DNA of 64,000 nucleotides. It comes from Leucoraja erinacea (taxonomy: Eukaryota). The translations under genes were made by a program, and so were the position numbers. Positions within the stretch are counted from its first letter, which is position 1. The number at the start of each line of letters is the position of its first letter. The notes beneath the pieces were generated by a model, which saw only the letters and a program-made list of their open reading frames with translations, was not told the origin of the DNA and did no database searches. This document shows positions 17,315-63,355 of this stretch, in pieces. Location: NCBI RefSeq assembly GCF_028641065.1, contig NC_073399.1, forward strand, positions 32,736,001-32,800,000, read 5' to 3'.

Positions 17315-18182
17315 GACTCTTGTAGGCGGCGCGACTCTCGTCAGCAGCGGCCTCTGCAGCCCGTCTGCGTTTTTATTATTTTTTGTCTATGTTTCTATGT
17401 AGTTTTTGTTATTTTTTGTTGGGGTGTGTGTGTGTGGGGGGGTGGGGGTGGTGTGGGAGGGAGGGGGTACTTTTAAATCTCTCCCTGCACGGGAGACCCG
17501 ACCTTTTCTTTGTTGGGTCTCCGTTGTCGTTGGGGCTGCAACGAGGAGCGGCCTCCAACAGGAGAAGACCGGGGACTCTGGTGCCGACGACTCACCTCAC
17601 CGTCGCAGAGCTGGCCGAGTCCGGAGCGGGTGGAGCGATGGTGGAGCGCTGCTGCTGCTGCGGCCCGACCTCCGGAGATTCTGTGGCTGCAACTGCGGGT
17701 CTGGTGGACGGCGGCACCGGGAGCCCGCGGGTCCCTGGAGGGAGACCGCTTTTCAGGGCTCTCGCAACGGCGACTTCTCCCGCCCGAGTTGCGGGGTCGA
17801 AGAGCTCCTGGAGCGGGGCCTGACATCACCGCCCCGTGCGGCTTGGAATGGCCGCGGGACTCTGCGAGCGCACGCCGGGGGGCTCTAACATCAAGACCCG
17901 GTGTGCGGCCTTGCACCTCCCGGCGTGGCTTTAATGGCCGCGGGACAATCTCCATCGCCAGCCGGGGGCTTTGACTTTGACTCTGACATCGGGGGGGGGG
18001 AGAGTGCAGTGGAGAGATAAGTTTATTTGGCCTTCCATCACAGCGATGTGATGGATGTTTATGTAAATTATGTTGTGTCTTGGGTCTATTTGTTTGTAAT
18101 GAATGGCTGCAGAAACGGCATTTCGTTTGGACCTCAAGGGGTCCAAATGACAATTAAATTGAATCTTGTATCTTTTATCTTG
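17315..18182 (+). mobile_element. GC-rich non-autonomous retroposon (hairpin-core family), flanked by 59-bp direct repeat
   Basis: Direct repeat 17256-17314 = 18183-18241; core CCTTCCATCACAGCGATGTGATGGATGTTTATG at ~18031-18063; tail hairpin, TGACAATTAAA and simple repeat. Confidence 0.8.
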
Positions 18183-18580
18183 TACACTGTCAGCATAAAA
18201 CAAGGCAGCATGTAGCTGTACCTGTGACTCTTGTGGTCTATTAAGTTAAGGCTGGGTGTTTGTCAGGCTGATGGGATAAGTCTGAACTTGGATTTAGAAT
18301 GCAAGAAAGAATGTCATGCTTAGACTTTCAACATTTGTCAATTTCATATTACAATAAAAAACATGTTGAAAATTGTCAAAAAACAAATTTAATGATAATG
18401 ATATTTTCTTCGTCATCAAAGATTTACAATGTTGCCAAGAAATTTGAGTAATCATATAGCAAAGGCTATCTTTCTTTTATACTTGAGTGACGCCTGATCA
18501 TAATCTTCTGAATGTCAAGTCTCTTCTTGTTATTTCAGCTCCGTTTATACACCCTTCATTCACTCTTCTTTTCTGAAGGA

Positions 18581-18699
18581 TCAGATCTCAGTCAATTGGC
18601 TTGGAAACAAGTAAAATATAATTAGCTGTTTGAATTGTGATTTATCAGTACTTTGAGCTGTGGTGGAAATATCGAGACATGATGATGTTGCTAATTTAC
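18581..18699 (-). CDS. IgSF receptor, tentative last coding exon (GKLATSSCLDISTTAQSTDKSQFKQLIIFYLFPSQLTEI*)
   Basis: Acceptor ..CCTATTATCATAATCATTCAG; phase 1 gives 39 open codons in unique sequence, ending T-E-I. An alternative acceptor at ~18600 would give a much shorter tail. Confidence 0.45.
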
Positions 18700-19920
18700 C
18701 TGAATGATTATGATAATAGGCAAGAGGGTTTTTCATATCCTAATCTAACACTTGTTTCAGGAATTTAACTTGATAAAATAATTTAGTTTGCAGATCATGT
18801 AAAGTCTTGTCACTTCAACTCTGTGCCATCTGTCACGAAATAAAGGGCAGCACAGCAGCGCAGCTAGTAGTGCTGTTGGCCCGCAGTGCCAGAGACCCAG
18901 TTGCGAACTTAACCTCGAGTGCTGTCTGTGTGGAGTTTGCACATTCTCCGTGTGGGTTGCCTCTGGGTGCTCTGCTTTCCTCCCACATCCCACAGATTGC
19001 ACTTTGGGAAGTCAAATGCAAGAGGAATGTATACAATAAATGATAGGACTCTTAGGAGCACTGATGTACAAAGGGGTCTTAGGGATAGACACAAAAAGCT
19101 GGAGTAACTCAGCGGGTCAGGCAGCATCTCTGGAGAAAAGGAATAGGGGATGTTTCGGGTCGAGACCCTTCTTCAGTCTTCAAGGGATCTTGAGGTGCAA
19201 GTTCATAGCTCCTCGAAAGTGACACACAGTAGTCAAGCTGGTAGAGAAGGCATGGTTCCCTTCATCGGTGATGATGTTGACAATTCAGGAAGTCAGGTTG
19301 TAACTGCGTAACATATTGGTGACGTTGCATTTGGACTATTGTGAGCAGGTTGTTGTTGCCGTACTGCAGAAAAGGAGAGGGGGTGTTGAAGAGGGTGAAA
19401 AATGGGCTTACCTAGATTCTGGATTGATTAGAGAATTTTCTAAATTCTAAAAGGAGAGATTGAACAAACATGATTGTTTTATCTGGAGCATTGAGGTTTG
19501 ATGGAGGTTGATAGAGGTTTATAGAATAATGAGCGGGTAAATAGTCAGTCTTTTTCCCAGTGTGCAAATGTCAAATACTTGAGGGTATAGCTTTAAGCTG
19601 AGAGAGGGATAGTTTAAAGGAGATTGACCAGGCAAGTTTTCTTAACACAGCCGTAAGTGCCTGGAGTACACAACCAGGGAAAGTGTTGGAAGCAACATTT
19701 AAGAGGTGTTTAGACAGGATTTGGTCAGGAAGAAAATGGACGGATATATACAATGGCTGATGGAATGAATTTAGATTGGCATCACAGTCTGTGCATACAT
19801 TGTTGGCCAAAGGGCCTGGTCCCATGCAACACCATTCCATGTGCTACGTTCTAATTAAAGGTAAAGAAGGCGCTCTTATTTGACATTGTAAAACATTTTA
19901 TTTTAAAAAAATTGACATAC

Positions 19921-19965
19921 CTATTAGATTTGACCGTGATGTTTCAGAAAATCTCCTCATCGATG
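19921..19965 (-). CDS. IgSF receptor cytoplasmic exon (ASMRRFSETSRSNLI)
   Basis: Acceptor GATTTTCTCTAAAG, donor G|GTATGT; 45 nt, phase 1-1, open frame, unique sequence. Confidence 0.7.
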
Positions 19966-20884
19966 CTTTAGAGAAAATCACAACATTATTATTCAAGTAA
20001 ATGTCAGGTTAGCAGTAGGTTAGAGTTGAAAGATTATTTCCTAGATAGCATTGCTTCATAAACATGCACCATGTCACACTCCTGTCTAACACCAAACTCT
20101 CGTCTTTTTTTAAACTCTAGATGTGTCTCGAGGTGTTAGGCGAATGGGCCAATGTAAGGCTAATGGAGTTTACTGTGGATAATCATTTACATTGGTACTT
20201 AAAACAGGAAGGCATTATTACTCGAGTCAATGATAGACTGGCAAAAGAAAATGTGCTGATGCCTGGTGTCCATGTGCACCAATTGTTGAGATTGAATCCT
20301 AGCGAGCCGCAGCCATGTGCCCAAAAACAGGCTGGGGTGGAATGGGAGAACTCGGAAACCACCCGGTGGGGAGGATGGAGAGAAACGGTGGCGGACACTG
20401 GATACAGGGCCCCTGTGAGGCACTGCCCATCCCAACAACTGGCCCGACTCACCCGCTGCGAGAGGAGGAGGATAGAAGGAGACGACGGCGGTTGCTGGAC
20501 CAAGGGCCCAGTAAGAAGAACTGGGGGTCTTATGTTCTGCTCCCTCAAGTTCCGTTGCGGGAAGCGCCCCCCCCCCCCCTCCCAAGAACAAGGGATAAGG
20601 CAGCGGTGCAAGGAGAGGGACATCGGATCGCGGGACGACACAGATTGAAACGATGGCTTTAACAAGCTTTTGTGGCCGGCTGCAGCAGGGACTGTAAGAT
20701 GGCATCAAAATGGCACCTCTTGCATACAACTAGTGCACTGTTCTACATTCTGTGTTAACTGGTAGATGGTGCTTATGTACGTGGATAATCTTGCTGAGTT
20801 TTATGCAAAAAATGTATTTCACTGTACCTGGGTACACATGACAACAAAGAAACATTGAACCATTGAAAGCAGCATTCAGTTTAG

Positions 20885-21190
20885 GTTAGTTTAGTTTAGA
20901 GATACAGCATGGAAACAGGTCCTTTGGTGCACCAAGTCCACACCGACCAGCGATCCCCGCTCATTAACACAAGCCTGCACACACTAGGGACAATTTACAC
21001 ATACACCAAGCCAATGAACATACATACCTGTTTGTCTTTGGAGTGTGGGAGGAAACTGACGATCTCGCAGAAAACCCATGCGGTCACGGGGAGAACGTAC
21101 AAACTCTAGACAGACAGCGCCCGTAGTCAGGATCGAACCCGGGTCTCTGGTGCTGCAAGTACTGTAAGCAGCATCTCTACCCATGCACCA
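20885..21190 (-). mobile_element. HE1-like V-SINE
   Basis: B box GGTTCGATCC, V-SINE-like core GAGTTTGTACGTTCTCCCCGTGACC, (AAACT)n tail. Further copies at about 13075-13330, 18845-18990, 21475-21915, 28990-29285, 29440-29655, 32325-32580, 32700-32950, 33540-33815, 34140-34345, 42635-42915, 54535-54700, 55215-55505 and 63420-63635. Confidence 0.85.
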
Positions 21191-21983
21191 CTGGCCAGCC
21201 ACCCACGTCGTGGCTGCTTCAGCTAGCAAGGCCTCCATTGCAAGAAAGTTTGAGTACAGGAGCAAGGCTGAACTGTGCAACTGCACAAGATCTGGCTGAA
21301 ATCCAATCTGTTTCATGTGCTATTTTGATCCCATTGATGTGAGCAGGAATGTGTTTGTTATGGAAGGATTGAGTGGTTGTTCACTAGACTGATTCCCGTG
21401 ATGGAGACATTGATGGGTGGGCAGAGAATAGGTTAGTCAGATCTATATTCACACAAGATTAGAATAAAGAGAAAATAGGTGGCTCAGTGGCACAGCGAGT
21501 GGAGCTGCTGCCTCACGGCACCAAAGGCCCGGGTTCAATTCTGACCTCGGGTGCTGTCTGTGTGGAGTTTGCACGTTCTCCATATAACCGTGTGGGTTTC
21601 CTCTGGGTGCTCCGGTTTCCTCCCACATCCCAAAGATGTGCAGGATTGTAGTTTAATTGGCCTCTATAAAAAAAATGTCGCATTGTGGCACCCATACATA
21701 ACGTGCTCCAAAAATAACAAGTTAACTCTCCATTTTATAGCTGGCTGCATATGATATAAATTCAGGAGATAACAGTGACAGGGACCAAGAGAAGTCTGTG
21801 TTGGAGAGTGGATGCAAAAGGGGGATAACATAGAACTAATGTGAACAGTCGATCGATGGTCGGCATGGACTAGGTGGGCCGAAGGGCCTGTTTTCATGCT
21901 GTATCATTAAACTAAATGATTCTTTGAAAACTGCTATGCAAAAATCAGTTTTTCCCTTTCAATTATCAGAATTAATAGTTTAC

Positions 21984-22124
21984 CTCGAGATGACCGTTTT
22001 TTGTAGTAAAACATTGCTGAGAATATCAGAAGCATTAAGAAAACCACGGATAGAATAAGACCAACACCAGTTCTCTCCCTGTCTTTTGATTTCTCCAATG
22101 CTGCTGTATTTGAGTACCCAGATC
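21984..22124 (-). CDS. IgSF receptor stalk + transmembrane exon (GSGYSNTAALEKSKDRERTGVGLILSVVFLMLLIFSAMFYYKKRSSR)
   Basis: Acceptor TTATTTTCTATTTCAG, donor G|GTAAAC; 141 nt, phase 1-1; ~22-aa uncharged hydrophobic helix followed by KKR stop-transfer. Confidence 0.88.
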
Positions 22125-22244
22125 CTGAAATAGAAAATAAATAATTAACGTGTCTCAAAAGGAAGAATATACTTTACTTTAGACTTTAGAGATGCAGCAG
22201 GGAAACAGGTCCTTCAGCCCACCTAGTCCGTGCTAACCCCATGC

Positions 22245-23070
22245 ATCTAGCACTCTGGTGCCAGGATAACAGCCTCCTCTTGAACATCAAAAAAACGAAG
22301 GAGCTGATCATGGACTTTAGGAGAGCACATCATCCGAGGACGTACACTCCATTGAGGATAAATGGGGATCCTGTGGATAGGGTGAACTGTTTTAAATATC
22401 TGGGAGTCCACATCTCCGAGGATATGACATGGGCATCACACGCCTCAGCACTCGTGAGTAAGGCAAGGCAGCGCCTTTACCACCTCAGGCAATTGAGGAA
22501 ATTCAGAGTGTCTCTGAGGATCCTCCAGTGCTTCTACGCAGCGGCGGTGGAAAGCATCTTGTCCGGGAACATTACCATCTGGTTTGGGAATTGCTCTGCC
22601 AAGGACAAGAAGGCTCTGCAGAGAGTAATGCGTTCAGCCGAACGCACTATGGGAACTTCACTCACCCCCCTGCAGGAACTATACAACAGGAGGTGCAACT
22701 CCAGAGTAAACAAAATCATGGGAGACCTCTTCCACCCCTGCAACGGACTGTTCCAGCTGCTACGGTCAGGCAAACGCCTCCGTTGCCATGCGGTGAGAAC
22801 GGAGAGGTTGAGAAGGAGTTTCTTCCCAGAGGCAATTCGCAATTACAGAGACTGTAAACGCCTATCTCACCAGGGACTAACTCTACAGAACGTTTTTCCT
22901 TCCATTATTTATTATGTAAAAGAATATGTGTGTTATGATTGTGTTTATAATTTGTTTGGTTGTTTTGTTGTTTGTCTTTTGCACAAAAGTCCGCGAGCAT
23001 TGCCACTTTCATTTCACTGCACATCTCGTATGTGTATGTGACAAATAAACTCGACTTGACTTGACTTGAC
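22245..23070 (+). mobile_element. Rex1/Babar-type LINE, 5'-truncated
   Basis: Near-identical to 8268-9184; (GACTT)n tail. Confidence 0.9.
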
Positions 23071-24274
23071 TAGCACTATTCTACACACCCAGGACAATTT
23101 ACAGAAGCACCTGGAGAAAACCCAAACTCCGTACAGACAACTACTGTCGTCAGGATCAAACCTGGGTCTCTGGTGCTGTAAGTCAGAAGCTCTACCACTG
23201 AACTGCTCTGATTTCTTCTTGATAAAGTAGATTTTATAATTTATTTATACAAGGCACTTGTGACACAGAATGGACAGGAATCTGAGACCAGGGAATAAGG
23301 ACAATACTAATGGAGACTCAACTCTGGATGACGGTTAAACCCAATGCGGGGCTCACTGAAATTCCATTGTAATCATAACTAACTTATGAAAATTATGTGT
23401 CCAGAAGCCTTGGAAAAAACCATGCCTCACATCAAGCAGCAAAGCTTACAGAGGAGGGGAGTCAGAGAGTGTGGAGGGCCCTTGGAGAGATACCCAGCAG
23501 GGGATGCAGAGAACGAAGGGGGACCTGGCTGGGGTGGGGGGTCACCGAGATCAAAGGGGGGGGGGATCCAGCGGAAGAGGGGAGTGGGCTGTTGCCACTT
23601 GCGGCTGCAGGCAGTTGATAGGACTGTTCGGCGCAGTTTTGTAACTTAGTCAGTGCCAAAACATGGCAACACTTGTGTACTGCCTCGGTGAAGTCTGCTA
23701 TATAATTTTACAAGGTTGTTTGCAAAACAAAGCATTTCACTGTATCGAGACATGTGCAACATTAAAGTATCATTGAATCATTGAGTATTCAACACTGTGA
23801 TTCTTCAGAGATGGAACTCAGTTTATAGCTTGAAGGATTTTCGGTTGACTCACTCTCTGCAATGAGTTTTATTTTATAGTCAAAGTTAACCTATTATTGC
23901 CTGATTGCAATTAGAGCAAAAAATGGCCTAAACATTTAACATTTTCATTATGTTTGCAACATTAAAGAACTAGTTCCAATCAAAATCATCGCATCGATAA
24001 TAATAAAAATAACATATAACTATGCAATGAAGGGTGGAACAGTGACTCAGCTGGTAAAACACTTCCAGTCCGAGCGGCGATGGGTCTTTCAATTAAATCC
24101 TAGCGCTTTGGCTCAACTGGAGAGACCTACATCAGGTAACGCCGTAGTGGTAGTTGACTCAATAGTGGGAGGTACGGATAGGAGATTCTGTGGAAACAGG
24201 CGAGATTCGAGGTGTTGCCTCCCTGGTGCCAGTGTTCAAGACATCTTGAATTGATTGCTGGGCATCCTCAAAGG

Positions 24275-25114
24275 CAGGGGTGGAAATCCCAGGGGGGTGG
24301 AGGGGCGGGGCAGGGGACACACGTCCCCCGGTTTTGAGAGGTGGGGGACGAACCCCCCCATTTTTTGTAATCCGGATTTTAAAACCCGGTGAAATCTTCG
24401 CTTTCCGCGAGACAGTGGGGGTGGGACTGCTGATCGAGGGCGCCGATTGGATGGGAGAGACGTGGGGGCGGGACATGATGATTCAGCGCGATCATTGGAG
24501 GAGGGTCCTGTCGGTCACAGGCGGAAGTGGAGGGGGGGGGGGTGGGGGGTGGGACTGAGGATAGAACGTGGTCATTGGAGGAGGGAGACGTGCCAAAACA
24601 CTCTTGGCAGCCCTGGACACCAACCTGCGCCTCATCCGCAGCCAGGATCGACCCCGGCTCTCCGGCGCTGCAATCGCTGCCGAACTGCCACTGGACCATC
24701 TCCAGGGGGTGGCCAGAGACGTCGGGAGTCAGACAGGAGCTGTGCCCCCAGGCCCATAGCCAGCACAGAGAAGCAGCGCTAAATCTAGCTCAACTCTGCC
24801 TGTCCTGCCAGGTTAACCTACAGCCCTGCCTGGATTTACGGGAAATATGGCCCAGGTTTACAGCCAGCGCGGAGAAGCAGGACTAGCTCCACGACTCCAG
24901 GCTGGTGTCTCGTCAGTCCAGGCAGGGCTGTAGGTTAACCCGGCGAGACAGGCAGAGTTGAGCTGCATTTAGCGCTGGATTGAGCTGAAATAACCGTTCA
25001 AAAGGCCCACGGCTGAAGCCTCTGAAGGCTCGCGTGTGAGTGAGTGTGCACATGCGCGCGCGGTCGCCAAGAAGTGGTGTCCCCCCCATATTTTGATAGC
25101 GATTTCCGTGCCTG
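24275..25114. mobile_element. Non-autonomous hAT element nested in CR1 ORF1
   Basis: TIRs CAGGGGTGGAAATC / GATTTCCGTGCCTG; 8-bp TSD CTCAAAGG / CTCAAGGG; internal ~60-bp inverted repeat 24773-24834 vs 24916-24978. Confidence 0.85.
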
Positions 25115-25485
25115 CTCAAGGGGGAAGGGGAGCAGCTGGAAGTGGTTGTGCAAGTTGGCACAAATGACGTTGGGAAGAAGAGGAAGGAGGTTCTGCAACA
25201 CGAGTTTAATGATTTCGGAAGAAGGCTGAAAAGCAGGACCTCTAGGGTGTTTATCTCTGAATTGCTTCCAGTACCTCATGCTGGTGAGGGCAGAAACAGG
25301 GAGATAGGGGATCTGAATGTACAGCTGAGGGGCATATGCAGGGGGCAAGGATTTTGATTTATAGACCACTGGGATCTCTTCTGGGGTAAGGGGGACTTGT
25401 ACCATAGGGATGGGTTACACCTTAACTGGAGGGGGACCAACATTCTGGCAAGTAGGTTTGTTAGTTCTGCACAGGGTGGGTTAGA

Positions 25486-27437: not shown

Positions 27438-27456
27438 TGTAAAGTGCCGGAGTTGA

Positions 27457-29799: not shown

Positions 29800-31897
29800 C
29801 AGGTGCACAACCTTTTATCCGAAGATCCAAATAACGAAAGCCTCCGAATAGCGGACATTTTTTCGGTCCTTGAAGAAAGGTCCTTGAAAACGTTCACCGA
29901 GGGCGGCCCGCAGAGGTGACAGCGGAACCTCTGGTCGGTCCTCGAAGAAAAGGGAACTAAATCCCCATTCATAAAAGAGAAGGTGAGGGTATATTGCGCA
30001 GGAGGGTTAATAATTGACAATATGCTGCTACCTGCCCGCTGCGTTAAAAAGTTCCCACGGTAGACACGATACACAGTGTATCGTGAGTCTTGCGTGGGAA
30101 CTTTTTAACTCAGCGTGCAGGCAGCAGTAGATTGTCGCTCCCTTCAGTTTCACCCCACCTACACCCCTCTGCTTCCCGGCCATGTGTGTGACCCCTTCCC
30201 CCCCCTCTCCAGCTCCCCGCTCAATGCACCGGCGCGGGGGCTTTGTACTGTCTTCACGTCGCGATGCTAGCAGCACAGTGCAGTCACCGGAGACGTCAGG
30301 ACCAACGGAACACCGACCCCCAGGCCCACTGCAAGCACGGAGATCCCAGATCAGCAACTCCAGCCCAGCCCCGTTCCAACTCCAGAGGAACACGCTCCCT
30401 GTATGGGCAGAAGCTGATGGTGTGCAAGGGCTCCGTCTTGTTCTTGGGGTCGCGCAGCTCGGGCTGTGGGCGAACTGCCACTTGTCGCCATAGCGGCCCA
30501 CTGGGGAGCGGATTCCTCTGGAGTTGGAGGGGGAGGGGGGTATTGTGCTGTTTGATCGCCCCCTACTATCCCAGGGACAGTGAGACAGGACGTTCACCGA
30601 GGGCGGCCCGCAGAGGTGACAGTGGAACCTCCGGTCGGTCCTCGAAGAAAGGGGAACTAAATCCCCATCCATAAATGAGAAGGTGAGGGTATATTGCGCG
30701 GGAGGGTTAATAATTGACAATATGCTGCTGTCTGCCCGCTGAGTTAAAAAGTTCCCACGGTAGACTCACGATACACAGTGTATCGTGAGTCTTGTGTGGG
30801 AACTTTTTAACTCAGCGTGCAGGCAGCAGCAGATTGTCGCTCCCTTCAGTTTCACCCCACCTACACCCCTCTGCTCCCCGGCCATGTGTGTGACCCCTTC
30901 CCTCCCCTCTCCAGCTCCCCGCTCATTGCACCAGCGCGGGGGCTTTGTACTGTCTTCATGTCGGCGATGGCAGCAGGCCAGTGCAGTCACTGGAGACGTC
31001 AGGACCAATTGGACGTCGACCACCAGGCCCACCGCAAGCACGGAGAACCCAGAGACCCACAGCCAACAGCAGCCCAGCCCAGCCCCGCTCCAACTACAGA
31101 GGAACCTGGGTTGCGGATGACGGGGCGCAGCTTGGGGCGTCGTAGGGGCCCATCGGGGAGCGGGTTCCTGTTGGTCCTGACGTCTCCGGCCACCTGCTAT
31201 CCTCCGGGAACTGTACCGCCCTTGCAGGAGAGTGGGGTTGTTTGCAGTTGCAGAGGGAGGGGGCAAGGGCGGTACAGTTCCCTGTCTCAGCTCCAGTCCA
31301 GGGGGGTGGCCGGAGACGTCAGGACCAACGGGACAGCGACCCCCAGGCCCACTGCAAGCACGGAGACCCACAGCCAGCAGCAACTCCAGCCCAGCCCCGC
31401 TCCAACTCCAGAGGAACACGTAGGGGCAGAAGCGGATGGTGTGCAAGGTGTTCTTGGGGTGGCGCAGCTCGGGCTGTGGGCAAACTGCCACTTGTCGCCG
31501 TAGCGGCCCATCGGGGAGCGGATTCCTCTGGAGTTGGAGGGGGAGGGGGGTATTGTGCTGTTTGATCGCCCCCTGCTATCCCAGGGACAGGGAGACACAG
31601 CGGCTTTTTAGACTGGTGGGCAATCACTTCCAAAGTTCTGCCCACACAGTCAGTACACCTCTCCTACACTGCATTTCATACTGCAAGAAAAAACGACATT
31701 GAAGACTCAAACTCGCGACCGAGTAACTGCCGGGATCAAGGCGCAAACTCGCGACCTTGCGGATATGAGCCGAGCACTCTACCACTGAGCCAGCCATTAA
31801 AATCTACGCTAAAAAATTTCCATTCCGAAGACCGACAAATTCTGAATTACGAAAAGTGTCTGGTCCCAAGGCTTTCGGATAAAAGGTTGTGCACCTG
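29800..31897. mobile_element. Non-autonomous Tc1/mariner (pogo/Tigger-like) element with internal tandem amplification
   Basis: 24-bp perfect TIRs CAGGTGCACAACCTTTTATCCGAA and TA target duplication; ~700-bp unit at 29890-30589 repeated from 30590. Confidence 0.85.
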
Positions 31898-31943
31898 TAT
31901 TTAAAAAGTGAAAGAAAGGAAGAGAAAGTACAATATTACTCAC

Positions 31944-37347: not shown

Positions 37348-38035
37348 CAGGGGCGCCACATGTTTGTCAGCCTTGCCAACAGTCTATCTGTTTTGTCGTC
37401 TCTTTTTGTGTTATTATTAGTGTGTTTTAAAGTTTGTGTAAATGTTCCCCAGTTTGTTTTATGCGGGGGAGGGGTAGGGGGTCGAGGGAATTTTTTTTCC
37501 AGTCTCTTACTTTGCCGGAAATGCGATTGTTTCATGGGTCGTATCTCCGGTTGTTCTGCGGCCTAACATCATGGGGCTGGAGACCTCGCACGAGACTGAC
37601 TTTGGGCCCCACTGCGGGGACTTTGCCTGGGACTTTAACATCAAGGGCTCGCAGTCTCGGGAGAGACCGAGTCGGGAGCTCCAAGGACACGGAAGGTTCG
37701 ACAGCATTGACCTGGGGTCCGGTGGAGCTGAGATCCCCCGATGCAGGAGCTTGATCGCCCCAACGAGGAAGTCCCGCCGCCGGCTACAAGACTAAGATCG
37801 TTCCGTCAACGGAGGCCTCGAGGCCCCCGACCGTGGGAGAGCAAAGGGAAGAAATGCAACTTTCTTTTGCCTTCCATCACAGTGAGGAATGTGGATGAGT
37901 CGCTGTGATGGATGTTTATGTTTAGATGTATTTTGTGTGTTCTGTTGCTTTTTATTTGTATGAATTACTTGGCAAATGACATTCCTCGTATGTTGCAAGA
38001 CATACTTGGCAAATAAAGTATTATTGGATTGCATT
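37348..38035 (+). mobile_element. GC-rich hairpin-core retroposon copy
   Basis: 5' AGGGGCGCC, T-rich then G-rich blocks, core CCTTCCATCACAG..CTGTGATGGATGTTTATG at ~37870-37920, different 3' tail. Confidence 0.75.
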
Positions 38036-38404
38036 GAGAAAACAAAAGAGACTTTGTTGTCTTATGGACTTTGGCACGGCATTTGGCAAGCCTGCGTGTT
38101 AAGGAACTTAGGAGCCATAATAGGCTTGTTGAAAGGAGGCAGAGTGTTGTGGTAGAAGGATGGGTTTTTTTCTGATTGTAAGTCTGTCACCATTAGTTTA
38201 TCAGTGGGATGGGTGCTGTAACCTTTGTGTTTTATTCTGGTAACTAGGGCATGAATGTAAGAGATTAGTAAATCTGCAAGTTACATTAAAATTATTGGTG
38301 TTGCGGATTGCAGGGCAGGATTGTTAGGCTATAGTAAGACATAGATCAGATGACAAGTTGGGCAGAGCATTGGCGGATGGAATTTAATCCTGCCAAATCC
38401 TGAG

Positions 38405-42916: not shown

Positions 42917-43357
42917 AAAAGCTCAGAGAATTGCTAAGGACAAACTGCACCCCCTCCACATACACCTGGATCTCCTGCCATCAAGCAAGAGATATCGAAG
43001 CATCAAAGCCCGGACTACAAGACTGCTAAACAACTTCCTACCACAGGCTGTGAGGCTGCTAAACAGTCACTCTGTACTCACAGTCACTTGATTCTGCGGC
43101 TGGAACGGACACTTTAATAACTGGCACTGGCCACTCAAATCAGCTGCCCCGGACATTTTTATGATTGGTTTATTGTATTTTAACATTGTGTTTTACCTGC
43201 TTTTAACTATTTATACTGTTCCATCAGGGACTGGATTGTTTTTAGTGTTATTATGTGTGAAATGTTTTAAATTTCATGTGCGATGCTCCACTATTCACTG
43301 GGAAACGTCTTTTCATTTTGCACTGTACAACTGTTGCTTGCAAGATGACAATAAAGG

Positions 43358-43417
<60 letters not shown>
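42917..43417 (+). mobile_element. Rex1-like LINE 3' end with (ATTG)n tail, inserted in a SINE tail
   Basis: HPLH..LLPSSKRYRSIKARTTRLLNNFLPQAVRLLN; TGACAATAAA followed by (ATTG)n at 43358-43417. Confidence 0.8.
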
Positions 43418-43418
<1 letters not shown>

Positions 43419-44402
43419 ATCTCCAAACTCTAGATTTAGCTTTCCTACATTAACCCCAGATGCCTTGATATGCTTCTTGTCTAAAATCAGTCAGTAATTG
43501 AGTTGACTGGGCCGCCATCGGCTTCTTTGGTAGAATTGTCCAAAGCAAAGTTTAACATATGGTGAGATTTTGACGGCGTTGGGCCTATTCTCTCTGGAGT
43601 CTGGCAGGATGAATGGGAGCCTCATTGAAAACTACTGAATAGCAAAGTGCCTGGATTGAGTGGATGTGGAGAGGATGTTTCCGCATGTGGAGAGGATGTG
43701 ACCAGTGGGCATAGCCTCAAGATAAAAGGACATACCTTTACAAAGGAGATGAGGATGAATGTCTTTAGCTAGTTGGTGGTGAATTTGTGGAATTCATTGC
43801 CATGGAGTGCTGTGGGGACTGTAATTGGGTATTTTTAAGGTGCAGAATATTGATTAGTAAGGGTGTCAAGGGTTTTGGGGGGTAGGCAGTAGAATGGGGT
43901 TGAGAGGGATAGATAGATCAGCCATGATTGAATGCCGGAATAGACTTGATGGGTCAAATGGCCTAATTCTGCTCCTATGACTTATGAACTTCACGGCCCC
44001 CCGGGAGATGACGTTCCTTACCCCCGTTGTCCTGAACAGCTGATTCCTGAACCTAGACGTGATGTCAGCACCAGATACATGAGCTGATTAGTGTTCTGTA
44101 ATTATCATTGCACACCACATCAAACGTTTGGGAGTTTTTCATGAGATCATCTCTCATTCTTGCAAACTCTCTCTCGAGGATCAATCCACTTAGCCTCACC
44201 AACAAAACCCTTCTCCCACGATAGACACAAAGTGCTGGAGTAACTCAGCGGGTCAGGCAGCATCTCTGGAGAAAAGGAATATGTGATATTTTGGGTCAGA
44301 CCCTTCTCCAGATGCTGCTTTATATCATCAACATCTGCAGTTCCTTCCTACACATTTTGCCTGCTCCCTAGAATCAATCTGGTGAGCTTTAGTATTAAAG
44401 TC

Positions 44403-45579: not shown

Positions 45580-46240
45580 AGGGGCGCCGCATGAAGGCTG
45601 CCTCTGCCTACAGTCTGTCTGTATTTTCCCATCTTTTTTTATTTTTGTAGTTTGTTTAAAAGTATGTTGAGGAGGATTTGTTTGTTTTTCTATGTGGGGG
45701 AGAGGGGAGGGGGAAGGGGGAAAACCGTCTCTCAGTCGCCCCCTGGTGAGGATGTGACTATTCTCCGAGTCGTGTCCTCGCCCCCCCCTCCCCTCGCGGC
45801 CTACCACCTGGATTGGCGCGGCCTTTCCTGGATACATCGCGGAGCGGGGCGATACCTCTACTGGGATCGCCGTTTGAAGCTCCCAAGTGCTGGGCCTGCT
45901 GCACAACATCGCAGTGGTTTTGAAGAGCTTCCAGCGCAGGAGGCGCTGACTTGAGTTCCATCATCCTGGCGAGAGAACCTGAGCATCGGGCCACCCATAG
46001 CGGTGACTGTGGAGGGCTCGGGTGGTCCCGACCACGGGTGAACATCAACGAACATCACAGAGGAGAATGACTGAACTTTGGACCTTCCCTCACAGTAGCA
46101 AACTTTGATTCCGCTGTGCAGTGGATGTTTATGTCTATTGTGTTTTGTTCTTTGTTATTTGTATGGCTGTATGGTGTCCCCACATTTCACTGAACCAATT
46201 GGTGCATGTGACAATAAATGTCTCTTGATCTTGATATCTT
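45580..46240 (+). mobile_element. GC-rich hairpin-core retroposon copy
   Basis: 5' AGGGGCGCC, same block order, core CCTTCCCTCACAG..CTGTG..GGATGTTTATG at ~46083-46133, Rex1-like tail TTCACTG..GTGACAATAAA. Confidence 0.75.
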
Positions 46241-47053: not shown

Positions 47054-47756
47054 CAGGGCCGGATTTACGTATAAGCTAGACAAGCTTAATCTTAGGGCCT
47101 CGAGTTCTAAGGGGGCCTTACTCTCCTCTCTGCCTTACCGAACCCGTCGAACCTCTCCCCTCATTGATACCGAACGGTCTATCCTCAGCAGAGGCCTCAC
47201 CTTTGTCCCCCTCCGTTGATGATTCCTTTTCCCGTCTACAACGGACCCCCTCCTCTTGTACCCCCCTCACGGCCAATGAAATTTGGGGGTCACCATCTGA
47301 CGTTGGAACGGGACGACATTCTCAGCGGCTTGGACTTCCGAATCGGCCACTTCCTACCAGAGACCGCACCACCTGAAGTCCACAGGCTGAGCTGGGTGGA
47401 GATTCACGCTGGTGGCCCTCGGCAAAGGGTCCCCAGGGCTCCGCGATATTAAAATCAGCGCGGCCCGAGTCTGGGAGCTCCGCAAACCACAGCTCGGTGA
47501 TGTTGAAGCAGCAGGCCCAACGCTCAGGAGCTTTAAACGGCGATCCAGGTAAAGCATCGCCCGCTCCGCGGTGAATCCAATATGGATTTTAAAACCAACT
47601 GTTTAATGACAACATACAGTCGGATCTACAAGGGTCACACTGTCACTGTCGGGTAGTATGGTCCTCTAGTCGTGGGGGTGGGGGATTGGGGGGGGGGGGG
47701 GGGGGGGCTCACAAGTGAAATAGCTTAGGGCATCTCTTCACCTAAATCCGGCCCTG
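47054..47756. mobile_element. Non-autonomous hAT element carrying fragments of other repeats
   Basis: TIRs CAGGGCCGGATTTA / TAAATCCGGCCCTG; perfect 8-bp TSD GGCAGCTG (47046-47053, 47757-47764). Confidence 0.9.
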
Positions 47757-47889
47757 GGCAGCTGCGAATAGCAGCAATAAAGAGCAGAAAGAACTATTTA
47801 TTACTTAAGCTTATTACTTAACTATTTATTACGAACACATGAAGTCACAAAGAACTGTAGGCTGAACAAAATACAAAGTGTTGGGGAAC

Positions 47890-55654: not shown

Positions 55655-55800
55655 TCAATTCAATTCAATTTATTTGTCATTTGGACCCCTTGAGGTCCAA
55701 ACGAAATGACGTTTCTGCAGCCATACATTACAAACAAATAGACCCAAGACACAACATAACTTACATAAACATCCATCACATTGCTGTGATGGAAGGCCAA
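55655..55800 (-). mobile_element. 3' end of GC-rich hairpin-core retroposon (same tail as 17315-18182)
   Basis: Reverse complement matches 18028-18165, including the TTTGGACCTCAAGGGGTCCAAA hairpin. Confidence 0.85.
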
Positions 55801-57604
55801 AAAAAATATCTCTCCCCTATCACTAAACGAGTATTTAAAATACGAGGAAATTAAAACATATTTTAGTGCTCAGTAGCCACTACTCATTAAACTGGGACAG
55901 AAATAGTCCAAGTGAAACAAAAGATGAATAACAAAAGATGACGTTTTACAAGGGAAAAGTACAGGTTTGATTGGTATCTCCTGTTAGTGTCATTTCCAGA
56001 AATGGCAAATCAACAGGTATCATAAACTATGTGTTTACAGAACCTTTCTCGTCAATGTCGATGGAATAAGAGACGTAACCACTCCTGTGTTGCAACTGCC
56101 GGCACAGTATATCTGTTTTTAGAACAAAGTTCCTTCCTATGATTGACATCAGGATAATTAGTATTATATAATAAGGCAAAACAGGTTAGCATCTTTATGG
56201 TGCAATGTTTATAGTAGACACCATTGTACACCATTGCACAAGTTAAGGTGATACTGTTAAACAAGTTCAGGCACTAATATTTTCCAAGTTTCATTGCATT
56301 TCCCCACAGGAGTTGACCTTTTTTACATTCCTGGAATCAATTCATGTCATGATGGTTGCAAAGTTATTACTATGATGCATTGAAGTGGGCATCAAGATAT
56401 ACTCACTGGCATGGATTTATATCAGCAATAAATGTTCACAATAGAGAAACATAATTCTCCTTGAAACCGAGTGGGTTTGTCCAGGTGCTCCAGTTTCTTC
56501 CCACACTGCAAAGACGTGCAGGTCTGTAGGTTAATTGGCTTCTGTAAATTGTCCTTAGTGAACAGTGTAACACTAGAATACAGGTGATGGTCAGCACGGA
56601 ATCAGTGGGCCGAAGGGCCTGTTTCCATGCAGTGTCTCTCAACTAAAAGTGTAACTGTGTCACTGATCATAGAAACATAGAAACATAGAAATTAGGTGCA
56701 GGAGTAGGCCATTCGGCCCTTCGAGGCTGCACCGCCATTCAATATGGTCATGGCTGATCATCCAACTCAGTATCCCTTACCTGCCTTCTCTCCATACCCT
56801 CTGATCCCCTTAGCCAGAAGGGCCACATCTAACTCCCTCTTAAATATAGCCAATGAACTGGCCTCAACTACCCTCTGTGGCAGAGAGTTCCAAAATGGTT
56901 AACTCATTTTTTTAATTTTTAATTGTGGAACATCAAAATTTAAAACAAAGAAAATTAACTCATTTAACTTCATCAATAGTTAGTTAACAGTGGTTAATGC
57001 AAAAGACTAGGTTTCAGGCAGAAAGAGTAAAATTAGGAATAGTAGTTTGAGAACCACTTTGTTCTGGTGAGCTTTGAGACTGAACAAGCTTTGGGTCATA
57101 TTTACCAGATCACATACAAACTGCATAATTTCTGTCACTTCCATAGTCTCGTCATGTACTGGACTACTTCAACTTATATTATTCCACAACTTTATTATCT
57201 TTAAACTGCGCTCCTTCTTGGTTGACTTCACCCTAAAGACCAATATGGTTTTATCATAAATCCCACCTATCTTCATTCTTATCTTAATATCATCTGACTC
57301 ACTCATTTTTGGCAATACCAAAAACCTCTACAGAGATTGGACCCACCCATTTCCATGACGATTTCTGTTCAATGACCTCGCCCTCTCTCTCCATCCCTCC
57401 CCTAACTAAGTCGCACCAGGTTCCCGTTCACACCTAGCAAAGCTAACAATGGCCTGTTCCATTATCATTGCTACATTTTGTATATCGTTCATTCATAATA
57501 ATAATACATTTTATTTAATGCCGCCTTTCAAGACACTCAAGGTCACCTAACATCATATAATATCAGCAATAAACATATAATAAGTGAAAAGTATTCATGC
57601 ATAT

Positions 57605-58805
57605 TCATGTATATGCTAATGAGTTGGTGTTGTATATAAGTAGGGAATGTTGGGTAATAAATCTCTCTTGTGATCCAGGCAGCCTGCGTGTAAGTTGTTA
57701 TTTATTCTGCTGTCCGGAATATAACAAAATTGGCAACGAGGATGGGATAGAGTTTGTGAACTCATCCTTTAAATACAATGCAGGACTGTTTTGCAACACG
57801 CAGTATTGTTTAGCAGTTTAAACAGTAAATACGGAGTTGTGTCGCAGTTGTTTGCGAGCTGGACATGAGAGACCTGCAGATCCGTCTATGCAGGGGACTG
57901 TAGTTTAAATCAGCAGCTGGATAAATCGGCGAGAGTTTGTCAGGCTATCTCTATGTTGTGTCTACGTGGCAAGATGTCGTCCTTGGGAGTGTATAACATT
58001 TTAGAATGAGTTTTTTTGTCGAATTCCTCATGCTGAATAGTCTTTGTACAGCTAAGTTTTAGATGAATTGCTACACCAGAACAGACTGGAATTCGGGGTT
58101 TTTGAACAGACTTTTTATTTAAATAAAAGAGAATGACACGATGGCAGCGAACACGGGCTACATTGGAAACATTGGCACTTTTGACCAGAGTAGATAACCG
58201 TTCAGCTTCTATATGGAGAGAGCAAACATGTTTGCTCATGAGAAGAACTTTTTTCACACAGAGAGTGGTGAATCTCTGGAACTCTCTGCCACAGAGGGTA
58301 GTTGAGGCCAGTTCATTGGCTATATTTAAGAGGGAGTTAGATGTGGCCCTTGTGGCTAAGGGGATCAGGGGGTATGGAGAGAAGGCAGGTATGGGATGCT
58401 GAGTTGGATGATCAGCCATGATCATATTGAATGGCGGTGCAGGCTCGAAGGGCCGAATGGCCTACTCCTGCACCTAATTTCTATGTTTCTATGTTTCTAT
58501 GTTTTACACTGCAAACAATATATTGGAAATTAGTGGTGAAGGAGAGATAGCGACTGAAACAAATATGTCCGTTTGCAAACGCATGAAAGCGATTCTGCTC
58601 ACGGAGATCGGTCCTGAAGTGTACAGCGTACTTGTGAATCTCCTTGCACCCTTAAAGGCAAAAGATGTGCCATTCAATGACATTATAAAGGAGCACTTCA
58701 ACCCAAAGCCTCTGGAAATTGCAGAAAGCTATAAATTTGGCACTAGAAACCAGAAGCAGAATGAGACAATCAATGAGTACATTGTTGCCTTGAAAAACTT
58801 ATCGG
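57605..58805 (+). mobile_element. Gypsy LTR retrotransposon 5' part (LTR end, PBS, gag), interrupted by CR1 at ~58238-58504
   Basis: LTR end ..ATAACA followed by PBS-like TGGCAACGAGG (57731); gag MAANTGYIGNIGTFD..YMER..F, AILLTEIG, EHFNPKP..AESYKF..RNQ..ETINEYIVALKNLS. Confidence 0.8.
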
Positions 58806-59581
58806 CAGTTCATCGGCTCTCTCCGCGAGCCGCTGCGGGTCGCTGATATCGGCTCCCGCTAGCAATAGCTGCACTTCGTCGGGCATCTGCTCTAAGAACG
58901 GCTGTTCGAAAAGCAGGCAGGGGCGGTGTCCATCCATCAGGGCCAACATCTTTGCTATGATCGTCGATGGCCTTCGGTCTCCGATACAGTCCATATGTAG
59001 CAACCTTACCGCCCTGTCTGTACGGGTAAGACCGTAAGCATGAAATAACAGGGCCTTCAACCCTTCGTACTTGCCGCTGGATGGATGGTCTCTTATAAAG
59101 GGCAACAGCCTCGATGCACAGTCCTGTGGTAATGCTCCTACCACATGAAAATGCATGGTGTCATCATCGTCGATGCGATGTTGATGAAACTGTGCCTCAA
59201 CATGGGCGAACCACACCTGAGGTTGATCAGGCCAAAAGGCTGGCAGTTTGAAGGCTGGTGAGCCCTGCCTCGTGCTGGCTGATTCTGCGGAAACATTCTC
59301 TTCCTGCATAATTCTTCTTGTCTAACACTGGCGATCACGTCGGGGTCACCAATTTAGTGGTCTGAGAAACGACTACTGGAGTTTTAAACAGATCTTTATT
59401 TGAAAGTTCAATAACCACCATACAGGCTTTTCAGACACGTCTGCCCACAACAGTGGTCAGCGCTGAACTAACTCATGCAAGGGAAAAACCACGCAAAACC
59501 AGCAGCCCCTCCCGAGTCACGTGACCGTGGCTTCCGAACGCCGGGTTCAATATCTGCGTGCGCTAGCAGACGGCGCTACAT
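58803..59581 (-). mobile_element. Second gypsy-type element 5' part (LTR, PBS, gag), opposite orientation
   Basis: LTR starts TGTAGCG at 59581 and contains AATAAA; PBS TGGTGACCCCGACGTGAT (59352-59335); gag KLPAFWPDQPQVWFAHVEAQF. Confidence 0.85.
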
Positions 59582-59850
59582 TGTCATCAATAAAAGCTTA
59601 ATTCATATATTAGGGTTAAGAGATACAGGCCAAACCCAGGCAAATGGGACTAGTTTAGATGGGGCATCTTGGATGGTATTGATTAATTAGGCTGATGGGC
59701 CTACATGATCCTGGAGAAAATATAGATTGGCATAGGTTTTAATGCAGAATAACAAACTTCACCTAGCAGTGTCAGTTATTTGAATTAGAGAAAAAGTGAA
59801 TTTCACACAGAGATTCACCACTCTCTGTGTGAAAAAAATTATTCTCATCC

Positions 59851-60126
59851 TTTAAAACCGAGATGAGAAAAACTTTTTTTCACACAGAGAGTGGTGAATC
59901 TCTGGAACTCTCTGCCACAGAGGGTAGTCGAGGCCAGTTCATTGGCTATATTTAAGAGGGAGTTAGATGTGGCCCTTGTGGCTAAGGGGATCAGGGGGTA
60001 TGGAGAGAAGGCAGGTACGGGATACTGAGTTGGATGATCAGCCATGATCATATTGAATGGCGGTGCAGGCTCGAAGGGCCGAATGGCCTACTCCTGCACC
60101 TAATTTCTATGTTTCTATGTTTCTAT
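59851..60126 (+). mobile_element. CR1 family A 3' end with fold-back 5' junction
   Basis: 59807-59849 is the inverted copy of 59861-59903. Confidence 0.85.
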
Positions 60127-60744
60127 GAACAGTTTATCCTGAAATACAAACTGCTCCATTAATTTTAATTCTGACATCTAATGATAAGCTGCAACGTTTT
60201 AAACTTACTACACAAAATGTATCAGTGGGCCCCAAAATGGAAAAGACTCCAATGCAGGCTCACCAAGAAGTACTGAAGGAAGCCCAAAATCTAGACGCTA
60301 ATGGAACCAAAAGATATAGACCTGGAACCAACAGTATGCAGAACTGATCAGTCGGCACCCAATTGGTGGTGATCTCAGGTAATTATACCGTGATAAATTA
60401 GGGGAGCAGATTAACTGCAGGTGTAACTCCTAATAGTTCAGTGGAGGAGTGTGGAAAGAGTCTCAAGTGTCTGAATTGTCTGAAAAGTGTGACAAAATGA
60501 CTTTGTGAAGATCTTCCAGTTGAATGCTATAAAGCTCAGTGTGGATGGGACATGTTCGTCAACATGAGCAAGTAGGGCCGAAGGGCCTGTTTCCACACAG
60601 TATGACTGTACGATTGTATGACTGTATGACTTTATATCTGACTCCTTGTTGCTGAATCTCTTGCCATAATCTTACTGCTCTGATGAGATGTTGATCAAGA
60701 AATTGGTCCATCATACCACAAGTGAGATAAATAGATCTACATAT

Positions 60745-61022
60745 AGACCCCGACCTCGGGTGGACTATGAGGGGGAGAACTGGATATTTTTAGTGCCTTC
60801 CCTCACAGTGAATTCTGCTGTGGGGGGACGTTTCATGTTGATTTCTATAGTGTACTGTTCTGTGTCTTTTTTTCTTTTTTCTCTTTTTTGTTTTGTATGG
60901 ATATATTGACATTTGGTCTGTTCTATTAATTTAATCAAACTCTGTAAAGCACTTTGGTTCAAATACTGGTTTTGTTGAAAAGTGCTATATAAATAAAGAT
61001 TATTATTATTATTATTATTATA
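60745..61022 (+). mobile_element. 3' end of hairpin-core retroposon with L2-type tail
   Basis: Core GCCTTCCCTCACAG..CTGTGGGGGGA; tail TGTAAAGCACTTTG..GTGCTATATAAATAAAG(ATT)n. Confidence 0.65.
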
Positions 61023-62412
61023 GCTTCTTCTTCTTGCGTTTGAGGCAGCAGAGGTCCGCGGCAGGGTGATGCCATCCGGTTCGACACCCGTAGGAGCCCA
61101 CAATAAAAAGGGCGCATGCTCCGGGTTGGCGCCAAGCTGCAGTGCTGCTACTCTCTCTGTTTGTTGTCGTTCCCCTGCCTGAGATCAGTTGACAGTGGTG
61201 AATCTCTGGAACTCTCTGCCACAGAATGTAGTTGAGGCCACAGTTCATTGGCTATATTTAAGAGGGAGTTAGATGTGGCCCTAGTGGCTAAAGGGATCAG
61301 GGGGTATGGAGAGAAAGCAGGTACAGGATACTGAGTTGGATGATCAGCCAAGATCATATTGAATGGCGGTGCAGGCTCGATGGGCTGAATGGCCTACTCC
61401 TGCACCTATTTTCTATGTTTCTATGTCTATGTTTCTATGACAGGGCTCACCACGGGGAGGTCGACAACATGAGCCACGTTCAATAGCTGAATTGGATGCA
61501 GCTGTCTATTAGTCATCTATTCTCAGCGAAACCCTTGGCTGATTCTTCTTTCAAAAGAGCTTTTGGCTTGAAATATTTTAATTTCATGCGATTTGAGTTC
61601 AGTTGGCCTGACAACTGCACCACTTTGTGGTCACTGTCAGAGGAAGTAGTCTGCTAGTCACTTTTATTGATGCAAAATTACAGAAAATATATTGAAACCA
61701 TGAAATATGTTGAACATTTGACAACGATGTTGCCAGGAGTATAGACGTTGGGAGATCATGTTGCAGTTTAAGACGTTGGTGAGGTCGCATTTAGAGTATT
61801 GTGTTCAGTTCTAGGCACCATGTTATGGGGCAGATGGAAAGGGTACAAAGAAGATTTACAAGGATGTTGCTGGGACTAGAGGGTCTGAGGTAAAGGGAGA
61901 GGTTGAGCAGGCTAGTACTTTGAGCGTAGGAGCATGAGGGGTGATTTCATGAAGGGAAATGATGGGATAAACGCACAACCTTTTGCCCAGAGTAAAGGGA
62001 TTGAGAACCAGAGGACATAGGTTTAAGTTGAGGGGGAAAGGATTTTATAGGAACCTGAGGGGTGACTTTTTTACACAAAGGATGGTGGATGAATGGAATG
62101 AGCTTGCGGAGGTGGTAGTTGAGGCAGGTACTATTGCAACGTTTAAGAAGCAGTTAGATAGGAGCATTGATAGAACACGTTTTGAGGGATATGGGGCAAA
62201 CACAGGCAGGTGGAACTTGTGTAGATGGGGCATGTTGGTTGGTGTGGGCAAGTTGGGGCCAAGGGCCTGTTTTCTCACTGTATGACTTCATGACCAGGGG
62301 AATCATGTAAAATGATTAATTAGGAAGTTACATTGTATAATTGGCATTATCTAGACCCAGTTGGCATTCAAAATTATGGGAAAGTATGAGAGTGTGTACA
62401 GTGAAATATTAT

Positions 62413-62414
<2 letters not shown>

Positions 62415-62466
<52 letters not shown>

Positions 62467-63355
62467 TATAGTATTTATATAGCACATTTATAGTCAATTT
62501 TCATTGACCCCAAAGTGCTTTACATAATTTAAAAATCAGTTCCATACAAAGCATAAAGATGGGTTAACAAAATAATAAAATGCATAAACAGGACACAACA
62601 TGTAACATAAACATCCACCACAGCATTCATCACTGTGGTGGAAGGCACAAAAATTTTGGCCGTCCTCCTTCATTTCCCCCCCATGGACAAGACCAGAGTC
62701 CAGTCCAGGATCGGTCTTTCCTCACCGGAGACCGCGGCTTCAAGATTGTGTAGGCCACAGGCCGGCGGTTGAGATTTAAAGTCCCCGCCGCAGCCAGAAG
62801 CACCGTAGACTGCAGGGCCGGCGGTCGAAGCTCCCCTCCAGGGGTGATGGTAAGTCCATGCCGGGCCCGCGGTAGAAGTTATCCGCGGGCCGGCAATGGC
62901 GGCTTTTTCTTCCCCCGGGTCCCCCACGAGGGATCCCGGGCTGTAGACGCCGCAGCAGCTGGAACTCTGCAGACCGCGGCTTCAGGATGCGACTTCAGGC
63001 TGCCGGCTGCCCCGGGCCAGTGAAACGGAGCACTCCCCTCCAGCGAGACCCAGCGAGGGCTCACCCGCTCCACGCCGAGAGCCCACGCTGCGCCTGCCGC
63101 TGAAGCCCCGGGCACGTCTCCGGGAAAGACCTCGCCGATCCTTGATGGTAGGCCACGGGGGAGGCGACCTGGAAAAAGTTGCCTCTCCATGGAGGAGGCG
63201 ACCGAAGCGGTTTCCCCCTTACACCACCCACACCACCCCCCACACAAAACACAAAAACCCCACTAAATACACACTTTAAAACATACTAAAAATAAAAAAT
63301 AAAATTGAAAGGCTGACGCGCTGCTGCCATGGCTGCCGCCAGAACAGCGCCCCTG
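62415..63355 (-). mobile_element. Full-length GC-rich hairpin-core retroposon with L2-type tail and (TAT)n microsatellite
   Basis: 5' AGGGGCGC at 63354; core TCCACCACAG-loop-CTGTGGTGGA at 62613-62642; (AAT)n at 62415-62465. Confidence 0.75.

Follow-up and report, generated by a model that had tools for sequence, protein, structure and literature searches.

Superfamilies of short interspersed elements (SINEs) such as CORE, V, Deu and Meta, with HE1 and SacSINE1 in sharks and rays and the HCD-SINEs of bivalves, keep one conserved domain that is joined to the tails of differing long interspersed elements (LINEs) and exchange their modules (PMC5499810, PMC11481361, PMC3747384). The heads of these SINEs are derived from tRNA or 5S RNA and belong to RNA polymerase III (Pol III). 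Here we describe a family of GC-rich repeats, represented by six copies in a 64,000-nucleotide stretch of the genome of the skate Leucoraja erinacea (assembly GCF_028641065.1, contig NC_073399.1, positions 32,736,001 to 32,800,000, forward strand; hereafter the window), which works like a conserved-domain SINE superfamily but without a small-RNA head. The copies share a head and a core and carry two classes of tail; 5′ truncation, one target-site duplication and a high copy number were observed, and a small-RNA head and a shared open reading frame (ORF) are absent. We consider it rather likely that the family is a superfamily of non-autonomous retroposons, with RNA polymerase II (Pol II) as the likely transcribing enzyme, and likely copied in trans by two LINE clades. 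The hallmark of conserved-domain superfamilies, one domain joined to the tails of different LINEs, is present. Unlike the CORE, V, Deu and Meta SINEs, however, the skate elements have no tRNA- or 5S-derived head, contain T-runs in the head and are 660–940 bp long, and their core is set beside the domains of those SINEs by layout alone, not by sequence.

BuceSINE and ManaSINE2 of birds, whose partners are AviRTE elements, resemble the skate family in being non-autonomous and LINE-tailed, with a GC-rich head of unclear origin (PMC4844689, PMC5786205, PMC7245038). They differ in a GGCCCCGG motif and in a bipartite RTE tail that a single partner supplied; the skate family ends in Rex1- or L2-type tails and combines a long T-rich/G-rich head with a CpG-rich body and a hairpin common to its members. 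SVA-type elements are transcribed by Pol II and trap exons through splice acceptors. SVA, LAVA, PVA and FVA of apes are, like the skate elements, non-coding and mobilised in trans, with a GC-rich, repeat-containing body and exchangeable modules (PMC5753468), but they require L1 and a poly(A) tail and consist of Alu, endogenous retrovirus and a regular variable number tandem repeat; the skate copies have sequence-specific Rex1/L2 ends, and a significant internal repeat occurs in one of five bodies. Bipartite LINEs (RIME, NARTc, Vingi-1_EE derivatives, Bov-A and RTESINE1/2) share with the skate family the lack of an ORF, expected transcription by Pol II and a LINE 3′ end, but those covered in PMC5786205 take both ends from one LINE and belong to RTE, Ingi, Vingi and R2 only, in contrast to the one head with tails of two clades seen here. 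A literature search, with Dfam, Repbase, subscription journals and supplements outside its scope, returned no description of this family, nor does the available text of a preprint on a batoid genome (10.64898/2026.10.27.761883) or of a paper on skate Hox genes (PMC2746220) describe it. Automated repeat libraries very probably hold fragments of it labelled Rex1, L2 or unknown.

Results

Six homologous copies in the window

The six related stretches that a preliminary description had located in the window were all verified at those places. Four are full-length (A, C, D and E; about 660–941 bp) and two are 5′-truncated (B and F):

17324..18182, + strand: copy A, full length, with a Rex1-type tail; belongs to a high-copy subfamily
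55655..55818, − strand: copy B, 5′-truncated, A subfamily (94% over 157 bp); core 55761-55805
37349..38036, + strand: copy C, full length; core 37861-37923 with a long loop; Rex1-like tail, the weakest tail match
45580..46240, + strand: copy D, full length; core 46074-46136, 3′ arm damaged; Rex1-type tail
62415..63354, − strand: copy E, full length; core 62603-62654 with a compensatory C-G; L2-type tail with (TTA)n
60745..61022, + strand: copy F, 5′-truncated; core 60787-60840, which has a C-G change and G-U pairs; L2-type tail containing (TTA)n

Comparison by nhmmer showed that every pair among A, C, D and E is homologous, with best E values from 9e-22 to 2e-5. When A, B, C and E were used to train a covariance model, it picked up the two copies kept out of it, F (E 7.5e-7) and D (E 0.0014), and, besides antisense self-matches, nothing else in the window below E 0.3. 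The proposed locations and homology are upheld; the start of A has to be moved, since 17315-17323 repeats target DNA and the element begins AGGCGGCGCG at ~17324. Identity is uneven along the copies, reaching 64–70% in the head, 43–63% in the body and 82–100% in the hairpin arms and flank (loop excluded). The block GGCCTA(A/C)CA, reported earlier as common to the copies, was found in C, D and E and is not clear in A.

Repeats are dense in the window, an animal sequence in which CR1-like, Rex1-like, L2-like and Penelope-like fragments are numerous. Exact core patterns gave zero matches in viral contigs, metagenome contigs and prokaryote genomes. A relaxed core pattern gave 119 metagenome loci, which were dropped as chance matches because at E<0.4 they showed no match to the head or to any full copy; a loose core pattern was too permissive (~7 chance matches per simulated window) and was not used as evidence. 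Four of the metagenome hairpins (L043, L081, L107 and L109) have the same short arm pattern with paired variable positions and are unrelated to the skate family; L043 and L109 are alike, and paired positions occur in 34 of 122 pattern matches.

The core is joined to two classes of tail

The preliminary description had implied one shared tail. This was not borne out by tail homology, as the same core precedes a Rex1/Babar-type tail in A, B, C and D and an L2-type tail in E and F. Apart from the homologues considered below, the clade names Rex1 and L2 are those to which we take the tail partners to belong, and the L2 label of the LINE at 1450..2236 is likewise presumed. The tail of A and the LINE 3′ ends that bear on this point, with reverse transcriptase (RT) and 3′ untranslated region (UTR) where present, are as follows:

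18091..18182, + strand: TTTGTA motif, then the Rex1-type tail of A (stem-loop, ATTAAA, degenerate short repeats); tail stem-loop z −3.8
1450..2236, − strand: 3′ end of an L2-type LINE (RT C-terminus and 3′ UTR); tail homologous to E and F
8267..9198, − strand: 3′ end of a Rex1/Babar-type LINE; PF09004; fish homologues are single-ORF elements with endonuclease and RT; tail class of A, B and D
22190..23064, + strand: second copy of the 8267..9198 Rex1-type LINE 3′ end
42918..43420, + strand: 3′ end of a different Rex1-type LINE family

Tails were compared, with 400 shuffles, with the L2-type 3′ end at 1450-2236 and with seven other 3′ ends in the window. The results showed that the tails of E and F match the L2-type 3′ end (p=0.002 each) and none of the seven others (p>=0.12), whereas the tails of A, B and D each match five or six of the seven non-L2 3′ ends at p<=0.012 and do not match the L2-type 3′ end (p>=0.49). 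Terminal stem-loops fold in the tails of A, E and F (z −3.8, −5.0 and −2.8), and E and F end in a stem-loop and (TTA)n. All six copies end in Rex1/L2-type sequence with a microsatellite, and none has a poly(A) tail. Two of the 3′ ends used, 39937 and 40222, were labelled CR1/HE1 in these tests and are probably mislabelled; the DNA before 39937 resembles a Rex1-type C-terminus by eye, below the tblastn threshold.

Three of the seven non-L2 3′ ends are joined to RT coding ends, two of which contain PF09004, and the PF09004 homologues are single-ORF endonuclease-RT elements of fish (675 matches among 1953 candidates). These homologues fit Rex1, because Rex1 lacks ORF1 (PMC13343379) and ends in a conserved 3′ UTR with oligonucleotide repeats (PMC6274825); rays are among the groups with the highest Rex1 coverage (PMC13343379). 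RNA reads aligned to copy A switch to other sequence in front of 18030 (124 reads) and past 18069 (88 reads, agreement 0.94). The switches fall at the two edges of the core and show that relatives with other bodies and other tails share it.

Copy A is a retroposed member of an abundant subfamily

The marks of retroposition in the window are a 59-bp duplication at A, 5′ truncation in two copies and the microsatellite ends. The junctions of A comprise:

17256..17314, + strand: left target-site duplication, 59 bp, 100% identical to 18183-18241
18183..18241, + strand: right target-site duplication
17315..17323, + strand: 9 extra bases at the 5′ junction, which repeat target DNA 17299-17307

A duplication of 59 bp is unusually long for an L2/Rex1-type insertion. 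In two public DNA runs, 19,995 and 26,577 contigs align to 17050-18450. In one of them (X1), the summed depth exceeds 0.33 million in 16 of 18 element bins, compared to 18–25 on the flanks, and it climbs at ~17325 and drops at ~18180, the edges of copy A; the two low-depth bins are the T-rich and G-rich blocks. Contig pile-up depth does not equal copy number, so that copies per subfamily can be given only roughly; a rough estimate of 10^4–10^5 copies for the A subfamily is in line with two copies in 64 kb. Over copy A, C>T and G>A changes prevail in the public contigs, as for the decay of methylated CpG. Related DNA is present in public runs of at least three organism labels, and a contig of the label organism B spans the left junction of A into the element. 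No empty-site joint, which would indicate insertion polymorphism at A, occurs among the 15 joints listed.

The core is predicted to fold into a hairpin

The core consists of a 9–13 bp stem and a 4–20 nt loop, ~45–60 nt in all. In copy A it has the following form:

18022..18066, + strand: pyrimidine tract, stem 18034-18042/18047-18055, CAG ending 18043, then GTTTATGT

The hairpin is the minimum-energy fold in five of the six copies (z −2.1 to −3.6). Two double-sided changes were found, U-A to C-G in E and A-U to C-G in F, and F has two further G-U pairs that are valid on the sense strand only. In a simulation, all pairs are kept alongside a double change with a chance of 0.023 for E and 0.014 for F; covariation of the core is suggestive, not proven. 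Conservation of the unpaired CCU before the stem and of UGUUUAUGU behind it equals that of the stem, and sequence therefore matters as much as structure. In the 3′ arm of F (60818-60827), the changes that make the G-U pairs are A-to-G relative to the majority; they may be neutral transitions in a G run or stem from A-to-I RNA editing before insertion.

Head, body and transcription

The head and the body of copy A are:

17324..17545, + strand: shared head; GC-rich start, T-rich block (runs of 5–6 T) and G-rich block (G-quadruplex/GC-box-like); 64–70% identity among A, C, D and E
17546..18021, + strand: CpG-rich body; internal degenerate repeat 17807-17889 / 17897-17975; recurring (A/C)CATC(A/G) motif

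The 5′ start is fixed in all four full-length copies, and each of the four heads has four to six runs of at least four T within its first 150 nt. A B box (at most one mismatch) was found in none of the heads, and a single A-box-like match occurs, in C, in agreement with the earlier claim that Pol III boxes are lacking. ARAGORN found no tRNA and Rfam, at the gathering score, no match in the window; at E<=10 over A, E and F, Rfam gave seven matches, all far below the gathering score and none to rRNA and none to small nuclear RNA (snRNA). Simple descriptors of hammerhead and hepatitis delta virus-like ribozymes had 0 matches on either strand of four copies, and Rfam had none. There is no shared ORF, as had been said before: the longest ATG frames (up to 160 aa) differ from copy to copy, and five short cross-copy protein matches mix frames and strands, as DNA homology would give. 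Pol III is unlikely, because several T-runs in the first 150 nt would stop it and the B box is lacking. From a fixed 5′ start without a small-RNA head, ribozyme or shared ORF, we infer that the element probably has an internal Pol II promoter.

The G-quadruplex/GC-box pattern is present in three of four heads. RNAalifold gave a long-range, unconvincing fold for the four heads, which singly fold at z 0.05 to −2.0. The bodies have 58–66% GC and a CpG observed/expected ratio of 0.76–0.87, compared to 0.49 for the window. The motif CATCA occurs 11 times in five bodies, where 1.2 are expected (0 of 500 shuffles reach this number). The internal repeat in the body of A, at an offset of 90, scores 55 against a shuffle maximum of 35 and is matched by a unit-sized deletion, 17827-17919, in public contigs over this body; none of the other four bodies has an internal repeat above shuffles.

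SINEBase (PMC3531059) gives SINEs as shorter than 1 kb with at least 100 copies, and the skate elements, at 661–941 bp and with tens of thousands of contigs on A, agree with this. They also have a LINE-like 3′ end as described there, with tail homology in A, B, D, E and F and weaker homology in C, from which we infer dependence on LINEs. The SINEBase head must be identical to tRNA, 5S or 7SL at no less than 60% over 60 nt; neither ARAGORN nor Rfam found such a match, and the definition also asks for Pol III transcription from an internal promoter. By this definition the family is not a SINE. The preliminary reading of a SINE-like superfamily with a structured domain holds as to the non-coding nature, the missing Pol III boxes and shared ORF and the hairpin domain. 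Tail exchange between two clades, the duplication at A, the abundance and the likeness of the 5′ arm to a splice acceptor are absent from it.

The 5′ arm of the core resembles a splice acceptor

In all six copies, 12–14 of the 16 nucleotides before the core CAG are pyrimidines, a context shared by 157 of 2580 CAG sites in the window. Downstream of the core, TTTGTA is present in six and A(A/T)TAAA in five of the six copies. Judged by these signals, a pyrimidine tract and CAG give the 5′ arm the look of a 3′ splice acceptor hidden in a stem, upstream of UGUA and AAUAAA.

RNA reads aligned to copy A number 3122 of 12.9 million in one run (X24) and 11,283 of 17.6 million in another (X22), mostly 80–95% alike and on both strands. 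A poly(T) loose end at 18022 in run X22 looks like oligo-dT mispriming. The reads have the appearance of read-through from many loci, and they leave transcription of the family in germ cells neither proved nor excluded; they give the idea of a hidden acceptor no support.

Other elements in the window

Two further GC-rich, apparently non-coding stretches, 20300-20870 and 23400-23795 (both + strand), have Rex1-type tails ending (CATTGAA)n and no hairpin core. They align with each other (score 94, shuffle maximum 67) and are possibly another non-tRNA retroposon family. A 703-bp hAT-like element at 47054-47756, with 17-nt terminal inverted repeats and an 8-bp target duplication, carries a stretch (47411-47583, − strand) homologous to the body of D (E 1.8e-13); it reads as a DNA transposon that captured part of the retroposon described here. 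The window also contains GC-rich, ~700-bp tandem duplicates with nested shorter repeats (29890-31597), a 473-aa open frame without a Pfam match (13612-15033, + strand), which we take to be Penelope-like, and a DUF7041 frame, likely a fragment of a Gypsy gag (58770-59321, − strand).

Discussion

In the life cycle that we propose, the RNA would be transcribed, probably, from an internal Pol II promoter and then very probably inserted by target-primed reverse transcription in trans, with the tail choosing the partner, following the tail-recognition rule of stringent LINEs, whose mobilisation of RNAs through a shared 3′ end is established (PMC3747384). We lean towards the view that the core is kept as an RNA element which would work with any partner and marks the body–tail junction where tails were swapped. 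As to its job, the best single guess, and a tentative one, is a 3′ splice acceptor with its AG hidden in the stem. Such an acceptor would recruit terminal-exon factors and help an intronless RNA to form its 3′ end at AAUAAA unspliced; it is proposed because a terminal acceptor can promote 3′-end processing without intron removal (PMC3737548).

Several observations weigh against this interpretation. A clear target duplication was found in A and in none of the other five copies, and no exact or near-identical partner LINE was found among the LINE 3′ ends in the window, so the partners are assigned at clade level only. The tail of C matches two of the seven candidates (p 0.002 and 0.025), the better of which is itself a non-coding element, and the tails of C and D fold no better than shuffles. 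Copy D, whose 3′ arm is damaged and which is not among the stems listed in the preliminary description, does not form the hairpin (z −0.7). Covariation was not significant in a pair-count test on A, B, C and E (111 of 500 shuffles were as high), and the pair-keeping simulation ran without D, which has a broken stem, and took F in one assumed register. The covarying hairpin of the preliminary description is thus retained as a stem in five copies with two double-sided changes, while a family defined by covariation is not established, there being just two compensatory events among four independent lineages. Copy E is without AAUAAA, and the acceptor-like score counts as one observation, not six, because the six cores share one ancestor. 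As for the RNA reads, 72% continue into unlike sequence, no sharp start is seen, the two mate directions have equal depth in run X24, and beyond the tail reads enter mixed flanks (96 reads, agreement 0.49); neither a poly(A) end nor a CAG join is present among the 24 of 1523 loose ends and 15 of 36 joints listed.

Two alternatives concern the origin of the family. The copies might be internally deleted, bipartite LINEs, in which a Rex1- or L2-type LINE supplied its 5′ UTR as the head and part of its 3′ UTR as the core and T-rich linker, and the tail was swapped later. Such LINEs are known and are expected to be transcribed by Pol II (PMC5786205), and the core and linker of C have weak alignments to two 3′ UTRs of Rex1 type, at 8292 and 23039 (p 0.003 and 0.007), and those of A to two LINE 3′ UTRs (p 0.023 and 0.010). 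However, D, E and F match no LINE 3′ UTR, and the 40 comparisons, four of which reach p<=0.025, all involve TG-rich DNA. No core stem forms in the one LINE UTR tested, and the covariance model does not find the core in the LINE 3′ ends of the window; PMC5786205 lists ORF-less bipartite LINEs for RTE, Ingi, Vingi and R2 only, and one head with two tail clades argues against a single LINE parent, so that we regard this origin as improbable. An unusual SINE, transcribed by Pol III or Pol I from an unrecognised head derived, for example, from an rDNA spacer or an snRNA, would account for the fixed 5′ start of the four full copies, and SINEs with 28S-derived or GC-rich heads exist (PMC4844689). Against it stand the early T-runs, at which Pol III would stop, and the lack of any rRNA, snRNA or tRNA match, and it is very unlikely.

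Two others concern the core. It could be a partner-independent ribonucleoprotein handle that brings the RNA to LINE proteins or protects it, its likeness to a splice site being due to chance; the SRP9/14 domain of Alu is an analogue of such a handle, as would be the CORE and V domains in the role proposed for them. The core is kept across two partner clades while the body drifts to 43–63% identity, its loop is free in length and its unpaired flanks are conserved, and a handle is one of three standing models for conserved SINE domains (PMC5499810); but a predicted 9–13 bp stem is small for a handle, and D is full length despite its lost stem, which leaves this a possible though doubtful role. 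Alternatively, the hairpin may be a by-product, a quasi-palindrome that is repaired upon itself by template switching and, by pausing reverse transcriptase, becomes a hot spot at which tails are exchanged; it would then have no RNA function under selection. Inverted repeats that undergo template switching acquire matched changes on both arms without selection. In favour of this reading, the module edges seen in RNA reads sit at the core, and the truncation points of B and F lie no more than ~50 nt upstream of it. The G-U pairs in F, however, are unlike the outcome of copying from arm to arm, and not only the unpaired flanks but also the head are conserved, and we hold a by-product to be distinctly improbable.

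Taken with the favoured reading of a Pol II-transcribed superfamily copied in trans, these data bear on a long-open question, namely what makes SINE superfamilies hold on to a conserved central domain as their heads and tails are exchanged. The skate family repeats this pattern with a domain of ~45–60 nt, an obvious fold and the look of a splice signal, so that the question becomes testable by a few mutants in existing fish LINE assays. It would also extend ORF-less, likely Pol II-transcribed retroposons to Rex1- and L2-type partners, for which the available text of PMC5786205 reports no bipartite derivatives. With six copies in 64 kb, the family is probably a sizeable, mislabelled share of the repeats of its host, to which each copy brings a CpG island, a candidate acceptor and a poly(A) signal. 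It is possibly an undescribed kind of genomic parasite, likely spreading by borrowing the copying enzyme of either LINE group. The boldest form of this view, which we put forward as a speculative one, is a previously unnamed class of vertebrate retroposon: a Pol II superfamily with its own CpG-island head and a portable RNA switch, an acceptor folded into a hairpin, which would license 3′-end formation and plug into different LINE clades. If true, this would be the first conserved-domain superfamily without a small-RNA head, and such a domain would gain a concrete, testable function.

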